A stretch of 41,111 nucleotides of DNA from a virus (taxonomy: Duplodnaviria > Heunggongvirae > Uroviricota > Caudoviricetes). The notes beneath the pieces were generated by a model. That model made no database searches. It saw only the letters and a list, made by a program, of their open reading frames with translations, and was not told the origin of the DNA. This document shows, piece after piece, positions 3,237-36,014 of this stretch. The stretch is from IMG/VR virus record IMGVR_UViG_2724679059_000002, positions 1-41,111 of that record; one strand, 5' to 3'. The stretch's first letter is position 1, and each line of letters begins with the position of its first letter. The position numbers and the translations under genes are program-made.

Positions 3237-5231
3237 CTAATTAACTAATGAAGGGAATGTCGTATTAATTACAAGAACTGTTCCTGACGGATAGCTCTGA
3301 ATTGTAACTTTACCGTTTGAAAGTATATTAATGAGGGCAACCGATGAATCAGTACCTGATGGAATATAAGAAATATCATTCTTTGGTCTAAACCCTTCTG
3401 GCAATACCATAATAACTGTGCCAACAGATGTATTTCCACCTGTTAAAACAGCAGATAAAGTAACAACGCCCTCGGCTGATTTCTGATATGTTCCACTTCT
3501 TGCCTCACCTACAGACCAACCATTTTGCAATATGCCACTCATATCATACTGATTACCTCGCCATGTACTCCATGTATTCTCACTAATCCTTCCAATCCTC
3601 ATTAAGCAAACGCGAGCATTATCTGAAGAATAACCATAATTTTTTTGTACTACTATTCCGTCAACAAATCTATCAACCTGAATAACACCATCAAGAGGCC
3701 AAGAAGCATCATCAGGGTTTGTTCTCCACCATGAAGTCCCCATGTGAAAAGTATTTGGCGGATATGAGCTATTGATGAATTGTATGGAAGAACCATTGTT
3801 AGAAAAAAGGTTGCTACTCCCATTTATAACAGCACACGGTCCATAAATATATTCAAATAATAATTTATGTATCTGTGCGCTAAATGTTGAGTTTGGGTGT
3901 ATTCCCCTTCCATCGCCATAAGGGTCATCAAGCCAGTTACCAGCAGATCCTCTCGAATCCTGCCACATACCGTAAGTATCAAAAAACATACACTTATATT
4001 GTTTTGCTTTGGCTCTAAGTACGGCTGTCAGCTGCTCATACCATTTTTCATCACGTCCGTTTGGTGTGTCTGATGTTGAATTTGGAGACATGATAATAAT
4101 TGATTGCTGGGCAACTGATTTATTATTTCGTAACTTTGAAAGACCTCTATCTAAAGCATCTTTTACTTGATCCAATGTATAACCATAATATGGATCGTTA
4201 ATTCCCCATCGTAAAACAATCAAATCAGCAGCAGAAAAAACAGACCATTCATGATCAATATACCAATTACCCCATTCGTATAGAGTTTTACCTGAATGGC
4301 CTAATGATGTATTTTTTACATCAATAATTCCATACCTCTTTGCATAAAAATCAGCAATAGTTGCTGGTGGCCATAATTCAGAGTTAACACCAACAATCGT
4401 GGAGTCACCAGACCACAAAATATATGTTTTCTGTGATTTATCCACGCCATCTGCTTTTATCATCTTGCTAATAACATAATTAAGATATTGGTCACCAGTT
4501 ACAAAACGGGAACGAGGGTCAGAATACGTTGTTAGTTGAACACCTTCTGTATTAAATACACGCCCCCTGCGTTGCTCAATTTCAACACCATATTCATTTA
4601 ACAATGAAGATACAATTTCATCATCTTTCATCGTAATTACAGTTTGACCGGCTATAGATAAGTTTATGGCTTGCTGTATATTATTCCCTACAGCTCCAGT
4701 TCTTGTAATATCTGGACGCAAAGTACTATCACCACCTTCTATATACCCTTCAAGATAACTTAAAGTTACTGCATCCTGAGGGCTTTCTGGATCTTTAAGA
4801 TTTCTAATCCTGTTATTTAAAGCGTCGTACCAGTTTGCAATACTTGATGGTTTGCAAAGTGCAAGACGAAACAAGCTACGACATTGTTGAATCAGCATCG
4901 TTAGCTTATCAAACGCATCCTCATGCACCTCTGCAAAGAATTTACCCTGATTACGCAGATCTGTTTCCTGAGTAACCGGGAGCTCTCGTGATATAGAGAT
5001 CTGATAACCGTTGGCCAATGCCTTCGACAGTATTATATTACCGCCTCTATAGCCTCCCGCACCAGTGACTGCGTAATCAGTATCAAGAGCCAGCACAGTG
5101 ATATTCTCGTCAAGGTCAATCACCTGCACCACCAGATCAGATTTCTGGAAAATCCTAAAGGTATAAGGGAACGTAGTTGTAACACCGTTACCTGTATATT
5201 CGTTGTGGTCAACTTCGGTTGAGACCGTCAT
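3237..5231 (-). CDS. Tail fibre/tailspike: T7-like N-terminal adaptor domain fused to SGNH/GDSL esterase-like C-terminal domain
   Basis: N-terminus MTVSTEVDHNEYTGNGVTTTFPYTF...TDYAVT aligns by eye with T7 gp17 N-terminus; C-terminal region has WSGDST (GDS motif) and a distal DxxH-like motif (GRGIHP); C-terminal DNA looks AT-rich. Confidence 0.7.
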   Translation of the reverse strand: MTVSTEVDHNEYTGNGVTTTFPYTFRIFQKSDLVVQVIDLDENITVLALDTDYAVTGAGGYRGGNIILSKALANGYQISISRELPVTQETDLRNQGKFFAEVHEDAFDKLTMLIQQCRSLFRLALCKPSSIANWYDALNNRIRNLKDPESPQDAVTLSYLEGYIEGGDSTLRPDITRTGAVGNNIQQAINLSIAGQTVITMKDDEIVSSLLNEYGVEIEQRRGRVFNTEGVQLTTYSDPRSRFVTGDQYLNYVISKMIKADGVDKSQKTYILWSGDSTIVGVNSELWPPATIADFYAKRYGIIDVKNTSLGHSGKTLYEWGNWYIDHEWSVFSAADLIVLRWGINDPYYGYTLDQVKDALDRGLSKLRNNKSVAQQSIIIMSPNSTSDTPNGRDEKWYEQLTAVLRAKAKQYKCMFFDTYGMWQDSRGSAGNWLDDPYGDGRGIHPNSTFSAQIHKLLFEYIYGPCAVINGSSNLFSNNGSSIQFINSSYPPNTFHMGTSWWRTNPDDASWPLDGVIQVDRFVDGIVVQKNYGYSSDNARVCLMRIGRISENTWSTWRGNQYDMSGILQNGWSVGEARSGTYQKSAEGVVTLSAVLTGGNTSVGTVIMVLPEGFRPKNDISYIPSGTDSSVALINILSNGKVTIQSYPSGTVLVINTTFPSLVN

Positions 5232-5335
5232 GTTAAATCTCCAGATAGTCGCAGCACCCGTTGCGCCGCATATCCGGTTATTCTATTACCTTAAAAACCA
5301 TATATGGATAGATAACCCATAAATACGAACAGATA

Positions 5336-5350
5336 TTACCTTTCAGGTGA
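5336..5350. promoter_or_regulatory. Operator-like palindrome TTACC-N5-GGTGA upstream of antirepressor-like gene
   Basis: Member of the recurrent TTACC-N5-GGTAA family; flanking sequence resembles region 24338-24410. Confidence 0.45.
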
Positions 5351-5387
5351 TTCGCAAAACGTGCTGGATAGCAAACAAATTATTTGC

Positions 5388-5407
5388 TACTGTATATTTA
5401 TACAGTT
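5388..5407. promoter_or_regulatory. LexA (SOS) box
   Basis: TACTGTATATTTATACAGTT is a near-perfect match to the CTGT-N8-ACAG LexA consensus, 20 bp upstream of the ATG at 5427. Confidence 0.7.
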
Positions 5408-5426
5408 ATTGCATGGAGAAGATAAG

Positions 5427-5684
5427 ATGCAGCAGTATCACTATCCACTGGAAGAGGGATTTACCGAAAGGATTCACACGCCGGGAGGCGTCAGGTCACT
5501 GGTGGAGGGATCGCACTTGATGAAATTACTCCGGGATCTCGATAAGGATGGATTTAATGTCGATGGCCCACTTGCCGAACTGACTGCACTGATTAACTAC
5601 GTCACCAGCTCACAGATGTCTATGCAGGATCTGCAAACACATCTCGACTATTGTGCCGAACAATTACGAAAACAAACCAGATAA
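5427..5684 (+). CDS. Small antirepressor-like protein (paralog of the C-terminal domain of the Bro-N protein at 6000..6710)
   Basis: RBS ggagaag 5 nt before ATG; 85 aa; aligns by eye with residues ~170-235 of the downstream Bro-N protein (motifs PxGV, LxxLLxxLxxDG, DxxGxxAELT, DxQTH); preceded by a LexA box. Confidence 0.55.
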   Translation: MQQYHYPLEEGFTERIHTPGGVRSLVEGSHLMKLLRDLDKDGFNVDGPLAELTALINYVTSSQMSMQDLQTHLDYCAEQLRKQTR

Positions 5685-5715
5685 GGTTTGTAATTACCAA
5701 GTAGAGTGCTTATAT

Positions 5716-5730
5716 TTACCTCTGCGGTAA
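5716..5730. promoter_or_regulatory. Operator-like palindrome TTACC-N5-GGTAA
   Basis: TTACCTCTGCGGTAA between the small antirepressor-like gene and the Bro-N gene. Confidence 0.4.
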
Positions 5731-5999
5731 ATTTACATCGCACTCCTCTTGTGCCATAGTAATCGGGCACTGGCAAAATCCAGTGCCGGGATTGGCGTCC
5801 CGATTTACTAAGTGGCGCATACCACGCCAGACGTGGTTTTTTTATGCGTTAAGCACAGCTATATCCGAATTATGGTGGGCTGGGCAGGGGTCCGAAAGGA
5901 CGCCGGTACCACTTAGGCCGGTACGCCAACCTTGTCCAGTTCACCACCAGTAATTGGCGTTGCGGTGGTGATTAAAATCACTAAGTGGAGATAACCACC

Positions 6000-6710
6000 A
6001 TGGCTAATGCTCAAACTGCCATCTTCAAATTTGAATCTGTTAACCCTATCCGTTCCATCATTATCGATGGCCAACCATGGTTTGTAGCCCAAGACGTTTG
6101 TAGTGCGCTGCGTATCCAAAACGTCACCCAAGCACTTGAAAAACTGGATGATGATGAAAGGTCTATGTTCAACATAGGGCATGAACATCGTGCAATTTTT
6201 GACAGCCGAGTAAAAGAGATCAACATCATCTCCGAGTCAGGCCTCTACACACTGATCCTCCGCTGCCGCGACGCAGTGACACCAGGCACTATCCCCTACC
6301 GCTTTCGTAAATGGGTTACAGGTGAGGTTCTTCCTCTGATCCGCCGCACTGGAAGTTACATTAAAAACTCGCTCCCGCAGGAAGAACGCATAAAGATGGT
6401 TGCCGACCAGGTAGCCAACGCCACGGCGTCAGCAGTAATGCAGGCAATGAAGATAGAGAACAAAACCTACAGCGCCCCACTGAAGCCCGGATACCGCAGC
6501 CTGATTCATTCTCCGTCTGGTGTTCTCGGCCTGACGGAGAACTCACTGCTGATGAATCTGCTGAACCAGTTACAGGAAGACGGGCACGACGTATCTGGCG
6601 CGGCGGCGGAGCTGACCACCATGTTCTGCTACATCGTTGGTGTGAGCAAATGCCTGCGTGATATCCAGACTCACGCGGAGTATATCAACGACAAAGCAGG
6701 GTTCTTCTGA
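6000..6710 (+). CDS. Bro-N domain protein (phage antirepressor-like) with C-terminal domain
   Basis: N-terminus FKFESVNPIRSIIIDGQPWFVAQDVCSAL matches the Bro-N pattern; RBS ggag upstream; C-terminal domain paralogous to 5427..5684. Confidence 0.65.
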   Translation: MANAQTAIFKFESVNPIRSIIIDGQPWFVAQDVCSALRIQNVTQALEKLDDDERSMFNIGHEHRAIFDSRVKEINIISESGLYTLILRCRDAVTPGTIPYRFRKWVTGEVLPLIRRTGSYIKNSLPQEERIKMVADQVANATASAVMQAMKIENKTYSAPLKPGYRSLIHSPSGVLGLTENSLLMNLLNQLQEDGHDVSGAAAELTTMFCYIVGVSKCLRDIQTHAEYINDKAGFF

Positions 6711-6775
6711 CGGGCGGCGGCACAGGGATGTGCCTTTAAATAATTCTGTACAGATTGCAGGTGAATAGCGTACTA

Positions 6776-6790
6776 TTACCTCAAGGGTAA
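6776..6790. promoter_or_regulatory. Operator-like palindrome TTACC-N5-GGTAA
   Basis: TTACCTCAAGGGTAA upstream of the small ORF / YafO-like pair. Confidence 0.4.
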
Positions 6791-6850
6791 ACGGATTGGT
6801 TTCATTTTTATTAATCCGTGTAATGAACTTATGAGATATGAGGTAATGTC

Positions 6851-7030
6851 ATGCGAAACGAAAAATTGCAGATGCGTAGAGCGCAAGCTGCCGCAAGACG
6901 TTCTTTCAATGGAAGCGTAGAGTACGTAAAAGTTACTATGACAAAAGATCACGCAAGTCGCGTATCCAGCGCTTTCTTTGATTCTCGTAACAATAAGGAA
7001 AATTATGAGTTTGTCTGCGTCGCAGAATGA
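6851..7030 (+). CDS. Small basic protein, candidate antitoxin-like partner (below the 60-aa track threshold)
   Basis: ATG at 6851 with SD tgagg 7 nt upstream; 59 codons; overlaps the start of the YafO-like gene by 26 nt in a different frame; Arg-rich N-terminus followed by a VKVTMTKDHASRVSSAF segment that could be a ribbon-helix-helix strand-helix. Confidence 0.3.
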   Translation: MRNEKLQMRRAQAAARRSFNGSVEYVKVTMTKDHASRVSSAFFDSRNNKENYEFVCVAE

Positions 7031-7550
7031 TAAAAATCAAATTGTCAGATATAAGGGTCGAGTATTGCATACGCAAAATTTCTCGGCCCTTTGTGCATCT
7101 GATCTTGAGCTGAAGAAAGTATCTGATGCATTTACCCAGTATTGGAAAACGGGATACCATCCATCTCTTGGTAAAGATGCCGCATTTGCTCGTCCGACAG
7201 AAATGCTTAAACTAAATGTCAGGCATACTCATGTCGATAACCAAGACTATATTCCAGAAGATAGTGATAAAAAACACACTGGTAAAAAATCATCCTGGGA
7301 TGCATGGAAAAATATAGCGTCTGTACAAGTAAAATGCATACCAACAAGTGATTGCTTTTTAGTTTATTCGGTAAATCACAATCGTGATGCGCTGGTTATG
7401 TTTTTTGTTGACGCAGATGCTCACAACATAACTGAGCAAGAAGAGTTTAAAGAGGCAGCAATCACTATCAGTTATCAATTCTTTGAGAAAACAAAAACAA
7501 AACCAATGCCTTTAGAAGAAGATCTTTTTTCTGATAAATGGAAGGAATAG
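7005..7550 (+). CDS. YafO-family toxin-like protein (ribosome-dependent mRNA interferase family)
   Basis: Aligns by eye with E. coli YafO: GKDAAFARPTEMLKLNVRHTHV vs GRDALYDDSFTWPLIKFERVAHIHL, and CFLVYSVN...ALVMFFVDADAHN vs AHLVYCQG...AWLLIAILKPEPHK; RBS aagga 5 nt before ATG; AT-rich. Confidence 0.55.
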   Translation: MSLSASQNDKNQIVRYKGRVLHTQNFSALCASDLELKKVSDAFTQYWKTGYHPSLGKDAAFARPTEMLKLNVRHTHVDNQDYIPEDSDKKHTGKKSSWDAWKNIASVQVKCIPTSDCFLVYSVNHNRDALVMFFVDADAHNITEQEEFKEAAITISYQFFEKTKTKPMPLEEDLFSDKWKE

Positions 7551-7570
7551 CCCGCACTGCGGGCTTTTTT
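7550..7570 (+). terminator. Intrinsic terminator after YafO-like gene
   Basis: gcccgc-act-gcgggc hairpin followed by tttttt. Confidence 0.55.
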
Positions 7571-7641
7571 GTGGACGAAACAAAAGTCAGTGCTACACTC
7601 ATTGACGCCACATTGAGGTGGCTTATAGATGGAAATTTCAA

Positions 7642-7803
7642 ATGAAAAAAGCATTTGCTGCACTGTTCGTTTTGTTGTCTCTGGTAGCTTCAACTCAGGC
7701 CTTTGCCGGTCGTTGTCAGCACGACAGCGATACTGCCGCTGACGGCTCCCGCTGCGGTGGGCGTTCTGCGGATTCCCGCCCGGGCGGCGGTGGCATTCGT
7801 TAA
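7642..7803 (+). CDS. Small secreted Cys-containing peptide
   Basis: 53 aa; signal peptide MKKAFAALFVLLSLVASTQAFA; Gly/Arg/Asp-rich mature part with 2 Cys; weak RBS. Confidence 0.35.
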   Translation: MKKAFAALFVLLSLVASTQAFAGRCQHDSDTAADGSRCGGRSADSRPGGGGIR

Positions 7804-7825
7804 AAACAAGGCCGCGAAAGCGGCC
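7801..7825 (-). terminator. Intrinsic terminator of the leftward structural operon
   Basis: ggccgc-gaaa-gcggcc hairpin followed on the - strand by a U-rich tract. Confidence 0.5.
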
Positions 7826-7834
7826 TGTGACATG

Positions 7835-8131
7835 TCACGTCCCTTTTCTGAATGATAGCCATTCGAAAAATGATGACATTCCACCGCAGACAATAACAAA
7901 GATGATCCCACCAAAGAAGAGAAGGCCAGCCTGCCACCACTCCCACCGCCATACATCCACAGCGCCAACCATACCAACAATCGCTCCAACAAATGGAATA
8001 TAGCTCACGATGAAAGCAATGGGGGCTGCAATTATCCAGTGCAATCCCCACCATGATTCAAGCCCAGCCATAATTGCTGCCAACTGAAAAAGACCAACGA
8101 CGATATAAACAATGAATCCTATCGCTTGCAT
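7835..8131 (-). CDS. Small integral membrane protein (Trp-rich, 3 predicted TM)
   Basis: 98 aa, strongly hydrophobic; last gene of the ejection-protein operon before the terminator. Confidence 0.5.
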   Translation of the reverse strand: MQAIGFIVYIVVGLFQLAAIMAGLESWWGLHWIIAAPIAFIVSYIPFVGAIVGMVGAVDVWRWEWWQAGLLFFGGIIFVIVCGGMSSFFEWLSFRKGT

Positions 8132-8326
8132 GTAGTCACCTATTTACCCAGTAAAAATCAGAGGCCTCCCCTCAATAAGGCTTGCAACAAGAACTATTCC
8201 CTGCACAACAAAGATGAACCAGCAAATAGCTTGAGTCTGAGGGTTAAGAAAATATTTGTAGCGGTCAATAAATAACAACCCACCAGAAATTATCACACTC
8301 AAAATAATTAAAAACAAAACACTTCC

Positions 8327-10801
8327 TTATTGCGGAGTGACATCCTGAGGTCGCCACCAGTATGTCTGATTAAACTCTTTCTTCGAACGTTGCTCCATTT
8401 TACGCAAATAGCCTGGTGAAAAATACTCCTGCATCTGGTTAAAGATCATATGATCGAGAGCCGCCTTTAAGTACCAGAGATTCGCACCTGGCATCAAACC
8501 TTTCCCCAGCTTCACCAGATCACCACCAGTCTGCTCATTCTTCCCCTCCACAGCATTTAACGGTATGCCCTGAGCAATCTTCACTACGTCATCAACCAGA
8601 CCAGCTACCGGGCCAAGCATCGACGCCAGCGCGCCGCTTCCGTACCTAGTGTGATCTGACAATAAAAAGTCACCGTAAAGGCCAAGACCACCACCTTTCA
8701 GTAGAGCACCAAGCCAGAATTTTGCGGCATCTTCTCCTGTCATATCTCGAGGATTACGACCAGACGCAAGGTCGTTAAGTTGCTGCGACAAAGCGCCAAG
8801 AATGGTCGTACTGGCAATAAACGTCGCAATATATGCCGCACGCCCACCAGCAGACGGCATCCCCATAGCGCGTGACCAGTGGCGCATAACCACCGAGATA
8901 GGGAACGATTTAAACAGGAAAACACTTCTCGTTAATTCACCTTTCCATGTTCCACGCTGAATACCAGAACCGGTTATCAGTTGCTCACGTGCTCCCGGTG
9001 TAATAACAGCCATATCAACTTCTTCAGTTACGGCACCGAGCAGTTTACGCATTGCCTCAAATTTCACGCGTTCAGGCTCACCAAGATGTTTAACTGCTGA
9101 ATCAGGGATACGCATAATGCTTTCCGGTGTCAGCATCGTATTATTACCGTTCCCCCAGTCCTCCTGTTGCGCCAGCTTCCATACGCTCCAGTCTGTGTCA
9201 GTAATCCCTTTGCTTTTCAGGATACGAAAATCAGAGTCATCGAGGCTACGAAGGTCTGGTGTCCGTGACACTACTTCCCCCATGCTTCCCATCATGGTTA
9301 CGCCATAGGCGCGCTTGTGCGCATCTGACCATGCTGTAAGCCCACTGGCACGCATTACAGCCGTTGCCGCCCAACGAGACACTGACGGCCCCATATTATC
9401 CATCGCCCAGCGGTTAACGCTGCCAAGTAGAGATTCCATCGCCAGACCAGCGCGGCGCGCCCGCGCAAGTTCTGTACGGTTCGTTGGGTCCATAGCTTCA
9501 AGCTGGTTGCGGAATAACTGGTTCATTGGAAGGTTGGTCACCTTCGCAGACAGATACATGGTTCCAAGATCAGAGAACGATGATAGCAACGCGGATCCGA
9601 GTCTGCTGGCAACCAGCCAGTTGCGGATATTGTCAGACCATCGCGCGATGTGCGGATTCGCTACAGGCTGTGTCTTTCCGGAAATAAAGTTGTACAGATT
9701 CTCTGTGTTGTTCGCCAGCCGCTCGACTTTACCGGTTTTACTCGGGTTAGCTGTTGCCGTTTCTGCCTTCACCTGATCAAGAAGAGAGCGGAAAACATGA
9801 TCGGGGTTTGGGCCATATGTTTCCACCAGTGCAATATCTTTACTGATACCTTCCAGGTGACCGACCATGATTTCCCATAGAGAGCGATCGCCATAAAGTT
9901 GCTGATATTGCAGATAGGAATCTGCATCTTTGAAATGTATCTGTCGTGATGCATTACCACGGTTAGCACGTGCGCCGGAAATTCGCATTCCGGTATCAGT
10001 AAGCTTATTCAGCCCACCAGTAGCGATCGTGTTATAAGCCTCTCCAAGAAATGCAGACAACTCGGCATCATTCATCAGTTGTCCATCGGCTCGGATATAA
10101 TATTTGCGATCCAGCTTACCTATAACATCGCTAACCCACTTATCCTTTGATACCGCCCCAACCTTTTCCATAGAATGATGTTGAGGGATCCCCCAGTTTT
10201 CGAGATAGCCAATGTCCCCACCAGCATCATTAAACCGGCGGCGCAGTAGATCTGTCACTTCTCTCCACGCCTTAGCACCTTTTCTTGCTTTAGCATTGCC
10301 AGTATTTTGCCCTCGCATTTCATATACCAGGTCACGTACGCCCGCCTCATCTTCAAACAGACCAAAAAAGCGAGGATCAACTGCTTCGAATGCCTCCTGC
10401 AATTGACTCAATGCATAATCACGAGTGGCTTTTGTTCTGGACTCAACAGAGAGGAAATTCGATTTACCGTCTGCATTAAAAGCAATAGTACGGTTAAGAG
10501 CGCCAAGTTTCCCATCAGCCCCTTGATAGCTATTGATAAATTTATCCAATCTCTGACGTGCGGCTATAGTGAGGGCCACACGACGTTTCTTTAATGCCGC
10601 TTCTCGCTGTAATTCTTCAGATGCCAATTGTGCTGCACGATATAGCCGCTCTGATTCGGAAAGTTGTCTCCACGACATCGGGTCATCACGAGCAATGGAG
10701 CGCATATTTCGATAAATGCGGTCTTCAATGTTCTGTATTTCTCGCGCCGTTAACGTGCGCTGCGCCGCCTGCTGGACCGCTTGTATACATTCCTGTCTCA
10801 T
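8327..10801 (-). CDS. Internal virion / ejection protein (large, gp16-like by position)
   Basis: 824 aa; third of three consecutive large proteins downstream of the nozzle gene, matching T7 internal-core gene order. Confidence 0.5.
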   Translation of the reverse strand: MRQECIQAVQQAAQRTLTAREIQNIEDRIYRNMRSIARDDPMSWRQLSESERLYRAAQLASEELQREAALKKRRVALTIAARQRLDKFINSYQGADGKLGALNRTIAFNADGKSNFLSVESRTKATRDYALSQLQEAFEAVDPRFFGLFEDEAGVRDLVYEMRGQNTGNAKARKGAKAWREVTDLLRRRFNDAGGDIGYLENWGIPQHHSMEKVGAVSKDKWVSDVIGKLDRKYYIRADGQLMNDAELSAFLGEAYNTIATGGLNKLTDTGMRISGARANRGNASRQIHFKDADSYLQYQQLYGDRSLWEIMVGHLEGISKDIALVETYGPNPDHVFRSLLDQVKAETATANPSKTGKVERLANNTENLYNFISGKTQPVANPHIARWSDNIRNWLVASRLGSALLSSFSDLGTMYLSAKVTNLPMNQLFRNQLEAMDPTNRTELARARRAGLAMESLLGSVNRWAMDNMGPSVSRWAATAVMRASGLTAWSDAHKRAYGVTMMGSMGEVVSRTPDLRSLDDSDFRILKSKGITDTDWSVWKLAQQEDWGNGNNTMLTPESIMRIPDSAVKHLGEPERVKFEAMRKLLGAVTEEVDMAVITPGAREQLITGSGIQRGTWKGELTRSVFLFKSFPISVVMRHWSRAMGMPSAGGRAAYIATFIASTTILGALSQQLNDLASGRNPRDMTGEDAAKFWLGALLKGGGLGLYGDFLLSDHTRYGSGALASMLGPVAGLVDDVVKIAQGIPLNAVEGKNEQTGGDLVKLGKGLMPGANLWYLKAALDHMIFNQMQEYFSPGYLRKMEQRSKKEFNQTYWWRPQDVTPQ

Positions 10802-35429: not shown

Positions 35430-36014
35430 ATGAAAAGTATCCAGGACGTCCGCAGGCAAAATCTCAACGACTTGATCGACCGTGAATTCAATGGTGTTCA
35501 GACGCGGATGGCAGAAAAACTTGGAACTCAGGCAAATCTGGTAAACCGCTGGGCTCTTGGCAAGAAGGTTATCGGCGACCAGGTTGCGCGAAAAATTGAA
35601 GCTGCCGCCAATAAACCCCGTAACTGGCTTGATATCGATCGCTCGCTTTCTCAGGAGGGGTTTCAGCCTGTCGGCCCAAGCGACATTGGTCAGCTGGCGG
35701 CTCACAACCTGGAACGCTGGATGAGCGAAAGCCGCGACCTTTCAACGCAGGGAAAACTACACCGCGCATCCGGCGTCGCCCAGGTGACAATCAGCCGCCT
35801 GTTAAACAATGAAGTCAGCGTTTCCATTTCCACCCTGGAGAATGTTGCATCCGCATTCGGGCGTCACGGCTATGAATTACTGATTCACCCGCACGACCCT
35901 GCGACTATCAACTATGACCGCTCGCGCTACGCATTGTTACCCGAAACAGAGAAGGCAAAGATCGAAAGTTACATTGAATTTGTCATCAGCCAGAACGAAA
36001 GAAGCAAACAATAA
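35430..36014 (+). CDS. CI-like prophage repressor with two HTH regions and no S24 peptidase domain
   Basis: HTH at QTRMAEKLGTQANLVNRWALGK and a second HTH-like segment ASGVAQVTISRLLNNE; no Ser-Lys autocleavage motifs; divergent from the cro-like gene. Confidence 0.6.
   Translation: MKSIQDVRRQNLNDLIDREFNGVQTRMAEKLGTQANLVNRWALGKKVIGDQVARKIEAAANKPRNWLDIDRSLSQEGFQPVGPSDIGQLAAHNLERWMSESRDLSTQGKLHRASGVAQVTISRLLNNEVSVSISTLENVASAFGRHGYELLIHPHDPATINYDRSRYALLPETEKAKIESYIEFVISQNERSKQ

Follow-up and report, generated by a model that had tools for sequence, protein, structure and literature searches.

A YafO-family toxin gene and its small overlapping partner as a candidate mobile toxin-antitoxin cassette in the cargo slot of a phiV10/epsilon15-type E. 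coli prophage

What does a pair of overlapping plus-strand genes do between the minus-strand tail-fibre and virion genes of an E. coli prophage, and does it belong to the phage core or to an exchangeable insert? The question is raised by IMG/VR virus record IMGVR_UViG_2724679059_000002, a stretch of 41,111 nucleotides (nt) from a member of the Caudoviricetes, which was analysed at its full length and is called the window below. A first-pass annotation, made from the letters of the window, had described a plus-strand block at this place, and the open reading frames (ORFs), LexA box and terminators that it named are all present where it put them, between minus-strand flanks. We conclude with moderate confidence, from comparative sequence analysis, that positions 6741-7570 probably constitute a mobile two-gene cassette of the type II toxin-antitoxin type, which would encode a YafO-family ribosome-dependent ribonuclease (RNase) and a dedicated small inhibitor. 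The cassette is AT-rich, as had been remarked of the YafO-like gene (38.3% G+C, compared with 48.9% for the whole window). Its elements are as follows (aa, amino acids).

6851-7030, plus strand: 59-aa basic protein, candidate antitoxin; matches phrog_6685 end to end (E 1e-44)
7005-7550, plus strand: 181-aa long-form YafO-family toxin candidate with a predicted RelE/HigB fold (Pfam, hhalign and structure model)
7549-7565, plus strand: intrinsic terminator overlapping the toxin stop codon (7-bp stem with 6 G-C pairs, T run)

The larger gene had been called YafO-like, and profile searches bear this out. Its 181-aa product matched the Pfam family YafO_toxin (PF13957) with 25.9 bits (cut-off 25; E 1.1e-5), a score that is marginal for a single sequence. 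The same family was matched by all 22 of 22 close homologues at E <= 0.01 and by 44 of 70 wider relatives at E <= 0.001, the best of them at E 1.4e-26. Profile-profile alignment with hhalign matched residues 19-159 of the 181-aa protein to positions 4-127 of a YafO-type protein of 131 aa (E 8e-8, 94.5% probability) and revealed an internal insertion of ~18 residues as well as N- and C-terminal extensions in the former, which is longer than the canonical YafO size of ~130 aa. An exhaustive profile search covering 1.84 billion representatives recovered 61 clusters of this long-form subfamily, which grades from forms of 165-200 aa into proteins of 131-150 aa. The public NCBI label, both in phage TL-2011b and in E. 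coli chromosomes, is already “type II toxin-antitoxin system YafO family toxin”; therefore, the novelty of the toxin assignment is modest.

Residues G56, H76 and H140 are invariant across 70 sequences, among which are 131-138-aa YafO-type proteins, and F43, W47, G50, P64, S115 and Y121 are conserved in at least 90% of them. His76 and His140 are the candidate catalytic residues. An AlphaFold run with the 22 close homologues gave a predicted local distance difference test (pLDDT) score of 57 and was replaced by a run with the 70-sequence alignment, which reached a pLDDT of 91.3. In the latter model, the 181-aa protein is a compact alpha/beta structure of the RelE/HigB fold. A Foldseek search of a viral structure library returned no significant match, and nothing meaningful emerged from sequence searches of the Protein Data Bank (PDB) with the toxin and the toxin profile. 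A match to the small RNA (sRNA) AgvB at 7492-7571 (22.6 bits against a gathering cut-off, GA, of 56; E 0.35) was rejected, since it corresponds to the terminator hairpin.

The smaller gene overlaps the toxin gene by 26 nt. It is preceded by a Shine-Dalgarno sequence (GAGG, 6840-6843), and the Shine-Dalgarno sequence of the toxin gene (AAGGA, 6995-6999) lies within it. Its product has an isoelectric point (pI) of 9.7, the N-terminal half being very basic (pI 11.5) and the C-terminal half conserved, mildly acidic and ending in EF..(A)E. Over the 51 non-overlapping codons, the ratio of non-synonymous to synonymous substitution rates (dN/dS) was 0.16-0.35 in frame and at least 0.93 in the other two frames. 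Therefore, the 59-aa ORF is a protein-coding gene under purifying selection, conserved and inherited together with the toxin gene. It was intact, overlapping and upstream of the toxin gene in all of the first 49 loci studied, where toxin identity falls as low as 37%, and it was likewise present in loci added later, including L058 and L059. The family comprises 38 database clusters, all of them unnamed or “hypothetical” and all from Enterobacterales. Annotation of the gene is uneven. In E. coli UTME-9 (locus L056, 2640-2820), where the cassette is 100% identical, RefSeq calls the toxin and omits the 59-aa ORF; the TL-2011b record lists it as the hypothetical protein gp45. A literature search found no published work on the long-form subfamily or on the 59-aa protein.

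The pair was found across at least four phage backbones and insertion sites, with the stop/start overlap retained. It occupies the same slot, from ant to the virion genes, in epsilon15-like phages of E. coli, Serratia and Cedecea and in a Klebsiella aerogenes-type relative; in a siphovirus it stands between the tail chaperone and tape measure genes, in a Kosakonia prophage of the lambdoid/HK97-like kind it separates the lysis genes from the terminase, and it also occurs in two further viral contig types (L049-L051). A natural allele (L047, 4001-4535) carries a frameshifted toxin gene, truncated to 112 aa, next to an intact small ORF. Judged from this distribution, the pair moves and is inherited as a unit. 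Small Rep3 plasmids carry more distant YafO-family members as neighbours of RelE and BrnT modules, and each of these plasmid members has an unannotated upstream gene of 73-98 aa without a Pfam match. Shared ancestry of the 59-aa protein with the partners in L055 (108 aa) and in L060, L062 and L064 (73-98 aa) was considered and rejected: hhalign gave a probability of 0.3%, the hidden Markov model (HMM) scores for such kinship were equalled in 47 to 500 of 500 shuffles, and a common strand-helix-acidic-tail pattern was not supported.

Family membership, fold, the reality and linkage of the small gene, the mobility of the pair and the variability of its slot were all computed, and from them we infer an RNase activity and its neutralisation. 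The 181-aa protein belongs, as a long form, to the YafO branch of the RelE/ParE superfamily and, by homology, would cleave mRNA on the ribosome. E. coli YafO has been shown experimentally to be a translation-dependent mRNA interferase that is neutralised by YafN (PMC2814082). By analogy, the phage protein should block translation through mRNA cleavage on the ribosome. The 59-aa product would be made from the same mRNA, the ribosome-binding site and start codon of the toxin gene lying inside its 3' end, and would serve as a dedicated inhibitor, which probably binds the toxin through its conserved C-terminal half and may contact nucleic acid through its basic N-terminal helix. The pair would be transcribed from a promoter that belongs to the slot and bears a palindrome repeated throughout the phage.

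The slot itself is variable. Among 5426 complete E. coli genomes, 61 carry the cassette, and hundreds more match the flanks only. In other loci the slot holds a DUF4760 protein (L053, 2710-3249), a 210-aa unknown protein (L054, 2647-3279) or a second toxin of the YafO family, 170 aa long and 32% identical, preceded by an unrelated 108-aa gene (L055, 2630-3455). In phiV10 it is empty, and the ant stop is fused with the 3'-terminal part of a gene for a 53-aa protein at the repeat GGGCGGCGG (L052, 3970-3990). This direct repeat is present in the window at 6712-6720 and 7782-7790, where it brackets the cargo and the 53-aa gene. Given this fusion, phiV10 seems to have arisen by deletion between the two copies of GGGCGGCGG. 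Two features close the plus-strand block behind the cargo.

7642-7803, plus strand: 53-aa signal-peptide protein (phrog_14503, E 2e-40)
7809-7826, no strand assigned: G+C-rich hairpin closing the plus-strand block, called as a minus-strand terminator and annotated as a terminator in phiV10

The 53-aa protein, which has two cysteines and a Gly/Arg-rich tail, is kept beside all cargo variants and is the same protein, WP_000708858.1, in L053-L056. The 53-aa gene is not part of the pair, because it also stands beside the alternative cargos.

The motif TTACC-N5-GGTAA (at most one mismatch) occurs in 13 copies in the window, compared with 0.73 expected, and none of 100 shuffles reached 13. The copies that matter for the slot, and the promoter that bears one of them, are listed together with the positions found by the motif scan.

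5336, 5716, 6776, 24395, 27584, 27602, 33017, 33079, 34975, 35312, 35360, 36071 and 36133: copies of TTACC-N5-GGTAA
5336-5350, plus strand: palindrome copy TTACCTTTCAGGTGA, one mismatch, upstream of the LexA-box gene and conserved in related loci
6747-6790, plus strand: cargo-slot promoter, comprising TTGCAG (6755-6760), TACTAT (6771-6776) and the palindrome TTACCTCAAGGGTAA (6776-6790)

At most palindrome copies a -10 hexamer runs straight into TTACC, and this recurrent layout suggests that the palindrome is a repressor operator. Four copies (35312, 35360, 36071 and 36133) flank both sides of the repressor gene (35430-36014), and further copies are found elsewhere in the early region. The slot promoter is laid out like the ant promoter (5716) and like the early promoters that flank the repressor gene (36133). 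TTACC-N5-GGTAA is thus probably the operator of the immunity repressor; a protein that binds it is something that we infer, as is the benefit of the cassette to the phage. A similar motif has reportedly been described in epsilon15. Since the palindrome is probably a repressor operator, expression of the cassette is likely tied to the state of the repressor.

The palindrome at 6776-6790 is invariant in relatives, and an identical promoter and palindrome also precede the alternative cargos. The proposal that the cassette brings its own regulatory site is therefore not supported for this window: promoter and palindrome are shared with other cargos, and the palindrome recurs 13 times in the phage. 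For the same reasons, and because copies of it flank the repressor gene, we rejected the palindrome as an autoregulatory operator of the pair. A better candidate for a pair-specific operator is TGACG-N4-CGTCA, because it is always found at the small-ORF promoter and on different phage backbones. It occurs once per locus in seven other lineages (L004 5779, L005 5714, L040 3759, L046 3735, L050 3764, L057 4763 and L059 4746) and is absent from the window. It is loosely associated with a small protein that has Gln in place of Arg in its basic N-terminal helix (6 of 6 compared with 1 of 7, uncorrected for relatedness).

Several observations weigh against the toxin-antitoxin interpretation. The Pfam score of the 181-aa product exceeds the cut-off by just 0.9 bit. 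Foldseek against the PDB returned HigB2 and YoeB chains without significance (best E 0.29). The 59-aa protein has no match in Pfam, NCBIfam, PADLOC or PDB sequences, including searches with a small-protein profile; this agrees with the earlier statement that it lacks YafN/Phd similarity, and, since no known antitoxin family is matched, the antitoxin role is argued from position and linkage. No cassette-specific operator was found in the window, the palindrome being shared with unrelated cargos and early promoters. The slot promoter of the window carries a 7-bp deletion that leaves a hexamer spacer of 10 nt in place of 17 nt; therefore, transcription of the cassette may be weak or may rely on read-through from ant. 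The 10-nt allele is common to L007, L008, L053 and L056, and the 17-nt form occurs in most other loci, including TL-2011b; an alternative -35 hexamer, TGTACA at 6747-6752, would give an 18-nt spacer. Finally, an operator function of the palindrome for the repressor, if real, may leave the pair mostly unexpressed in the lysogen, which is hard to reconcile with classic addiction or constitutive defence.

Which biological role would such a pair serve? That it is an anti-phage module of the prophage, acting by abortive infection or against superinfection, is possible, and we hold this tentatively. An incoming phage would stop host expression, the unstable small protein would vanish, and the RNase would halt translation before progeny are made. 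The exchange of a DUF4760 protein, a 210-aa unknown, a second YafO pair and an empty state in phiV10 is typical of an accessory or defence hot spot, and the sites of the pair in other phages are classic moron sites. However, PADLOC-DB 2.0 defence models matched none of 7 window proteins and none of 6 alternative cargo proteins, the pair and the alternative cargos included, and the apparent repressor operator at the slot promoter runs contrary to steady expression in the lysogen.

The same objection, sharpened by the damaged promoter spacing, applies to the view that the pair works as an addiction module, punishing cells that lose the prophage or, for the plasmid-borne relatives, the plasmid; such a module would need steady expression, and control by the repressor is likely here. 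The overlapping two-gene layout is that of classic type II systems, and the distant relatives, with toxin-antitoxin modules of the RelE and BrnT types at their side on small Rep3 plasmids, would suit addiction. Yet only 61 of the 5426 E. coli genomes have the cassette, related phages do without it, and integrated prophages are seldom lost. We consider this role unlikely.

A phage RNase with a RelE fold is known in T4 RegB, and the 181-aa protein could by analogy be a tool of the lytic cycle, degrading host or early mRNA once the repressor is inactivated, with the small protein as a timer or limiter. The slot promoter is designed like the early and ant promoters, which predicts derepression on induction. 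But close relatives can do without the cassette and carry it only sporadically, it takes late or moron positions in other phages, where its own promoter has a different palindrome, TGACG-N4-CGTCA, and the alternative cargos of the slot are unrelated proteins; we regard a lytic tool as quite unlikely. About equally doubtful is a broader idea, in which the slot would be a gated cargo bay whose contents are released only when immunity collapses, through the SOS response, the phage's own Ant or a foreign antirepressor. It would cover any cargo, be it the YafO-type pair, the second YafO-type pair, DUF4760 or the unknowns. The RNase would then either shut off the host upon induction or guard the prophage against being hijacked, in the manner of a dead-man switch, and the fold of the 59-aa protein would be new among antitoxins.

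Least likely of all is that the small protein is no inhibitor but a transcription factor or nucleic-acid accessory, or that the 181-aa protein is non-toxic with another role: the small protein's N-terminal pI of 11.5, its lack of a recognisable antitoxin domain and the toxin's N-terminal extension, ~18-residue insertion and conserved C-terminal tail, absent from canonical YafO, would allow it, but strict linkage and overlap across 37-100% toxin identity and four phage backbones, invariant candidate catalytic histidines and a toxin-only frameshift found in nature speak against it.

To the left of the cassette, the block looks quite different. On sequence grounds, the plus-strand block is a core antirepressor region (5285-6740) followed by variable cargo (6741-7570).

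5390-5405, plus strand: LexA (SOS) box CTGTATATTTATACAG, near-consensus
5427-5684, plus strand: 85-aa gene, stand-alone homologue of the Ant C-terminal domain (phrog_450, E 1e-47)
5688-5730, plus strand: promoter-like TTGTAA-17-TATATT with palindrome TTACCTCTGCGGTAA (5716-5730) immediately behind, upstream of the IsrK/C4-ant unit
5754-5806, plus strand: c4-a1b1 target-like element overlapping IsrK (Rfam 44.3 bits, just below GA 46.7)
5767-5843, plus strand: IsrK-type Hfq-binding sRNA (Rfam isrK, 68.3 bits, GA 50, E 9e-14)
5821-5837, plus strand: IsrK terminator (hairpin scan)
5868-5951, plus strand: C4 antisense RNA of the P1/P7 immI type (RF01695, 66 bits, GA 45, E 7e-12)
6000-6710, plus strand: Ant (phrog_130 “anti-repressor Ant”, E 6e-56), with an N-terminal Bro-N domain (Pfam, E 1e-19) and a C-terminal domain
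6719-6734, plus strand: hairpin GGCACAGGGATGTGCC after ant, with compensatory variants GGCGCA..CGCGCC and GGCGCA..TGCGCC in relatives

The block had been taken as a moron in its entirety. The LexA-box gene, the IsrK and C4 RNAs and Ant instead form a conserved region, and only 6741-7570 is variable cargo. The antirepressor half is present in phiV10 and TL-2011b, is conserved in phiV10-type phages and is not a moron. The first-pass inventory was sound in the elements it listed but overlooked both RNAs and the 53-aa ORF.

The sequence CTGT-N8-ACAG occurs three times in the window (0.72 expected), and the copy at 5390-5405 is the sole near-consensus one. The 85-aa gene downstream of it is the equivalent of phiV10p24/epsilon15p19. 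Its product is 42% identical to Ant residues 155-228 over 74 residues (E 8e-16), and phrog_450 is matched by both proteins. It is a candidate SOS-induced small antirepressor. For ant, the mechanical ORF begins at GTG 5985, and the ATG at 6000 is preceded by a GGAGA Shine-Dalgarno sequence. The hairpin at 6719-6734 is probably a weak terminator. An Ant protein with a Bro-N domain from a related Uetakevirus favours lytic growth when overexpressed (PMC9782041).

The left half thus looks like a conserved antirepressor region, which would have an SOS-triggered small antirepressor and an RNA-controlled full-length Ant. Because the LexA-box gene reproduces the Ant C-terminal domain as a stand-alone unit, this arrangement suggests two routes to inactivation of the repressor, one through the SOS-induced small protein and one through RNA-gated full-length Ant. 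The repressor candidate (35430-36014) has an HTH_3 domain, and a domain search found no S24 peptidase match in it; therefore, induction via an antirepressor is plausible.

In P1/P7 immI (c4-icd-ant) and in the Gifsy-1 isrK-orf45-anrP unit (PMC4825925), as here, IsrK/C4 RNAs are placed directly upstream of ant, which in the window is a Bro-N gene. The window differs from both in three respects: the stretch from the RNAs to ant yielded no ORF resembling icd or orf45, a separate LexA-box gene precedes the region, and the promoter bears the epsilon15-type palindrome. Positions 5754-5951 thus show a P1/P7 immI-like RNA arrangement upstream of ant in a podovirus prophage. The LexA-controlled small antirepressors Tum of phage 186 and GfoA/GfhA of Gifsy phages (PMC3121763) likewise combine a LexA box with a small gene outside the immunity region. 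This likeness is drawn from arrangement; the 85-aa product itself is a homologue of the Ant C-terminal domain.

By sequence similarity, the window from ~1161 on is a phiV10/epsilon15-type (Uetakevirus) E. coli prophage, to which HEMP4, phiv142-3 and phiV10 are 96-97% identical over most of its length. Positions 1-1160 lie upstream of the point where similarity to phiV10-type phages begins; therefore, these first 1.1 kb may be host DNA or a different phage module. The genes that flank the plus-strand block are these.

3237-5231, minus strand: tail fibre with a GDSL esterase domain (Pfam), left flank of the block
7835-8131, minus strand: predicted membrane protein, 98 aa (phrog_3075)
8144-8317, minus strand: predicted membrane protein, 57 aa, no match
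8327-10801, minus strand: 824-aa ORF, right flank of the block; its phiV10p20 counterpart is annotated as a virion structural protein

The tail-fibre gene (38.7% G+C) joins a T7-tail-fibre-like N-terminus to a GDSL/SGNH esterase domain, and its product is probably an O-antigen deacetylating receptor-binding protein. The two predicted membrane proteins are located between the plus-strand block and the 824-aa virion gene. Terminator-like hairpins number 12 in the window, compared with 3.3 expected from shuffles, and include those at 5821-5837, 7549-7565 and 7809-7826.

Taken together, the long-form subfamily, the private family of 59-aa partners and the idea of a gated slot are new but incremental. 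Should the prediction hold, the type II repertoire would gain a long-form YafO subfamily and, in phrog_6685, a new family of very small antitoxins, whose gene often goes unannotated by the NCBI pipeline in E. coli chromosomes. The exchangeable slot in phiV10/epsilon15-type E. coli prophages, those of pathogenic lineages included, could be mined for accessory or defence genes, and the combination of a slot promoter with a phage-wide operator makes repressor gating of prophage cargo testable. Nothing is overturned by these results, as prophage toxin-antitoxin pairs with swapped partners are common.

How, then, does the putative pair compare with known systems? The ribosome-dependent RelE-superfamily RNases HigB2 of Vibrio cholerae and HigB1 of M. 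tuberculosis share a sequence identity of 8-9% with the 181-aa protein. The gene order of higBA is toxin, then antitoxin, the latter with a helix-turn-helix (HTH) domain; in the phage cassette the order is reversed, and no domain is recognisable in the small protein. In the PaaA2-ParE2 system of E. coli O157:H7, which lies in a prophage-related region, the antitoxin is very small (~60 aa), lacks any DNA-binding domain that can be recognised and is partnered by a toxin of the RelE/ParE fold; a separate protein regulates transcription, and the toxin is of the ParE branch and targets gyrase. The likeness of the phage pair, a putative small antitoxin with a toxin candidate of the RelE/ParE fold, is one of description. 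With E. coli YafN-YafO the differences are in build and setting. E. coli YafO has ~132 aa, whereas the phage protein has 181 aa, an N-terminal extension of ~15 residues, the ~18-residue insertion and a conserved C-terminal tail, PMPLxEDLFSDKW. The 59-aa phage partner is without the Phd/YefM (YafN-type) similarity of YafN. The cassette is phage-borne and not part of a dinB operon, and, in contrast to the dinB-operon system, the LexA box of the phage region belongs to another gene, 1.4 kb upstream. Common to both are the Pfam family (PF13957), the motifs G(K/R)D...RP, RHxH, PTSD..L(V/I)Y and AH, and a partner gene placed upstream of the toxin gene in the same operon.

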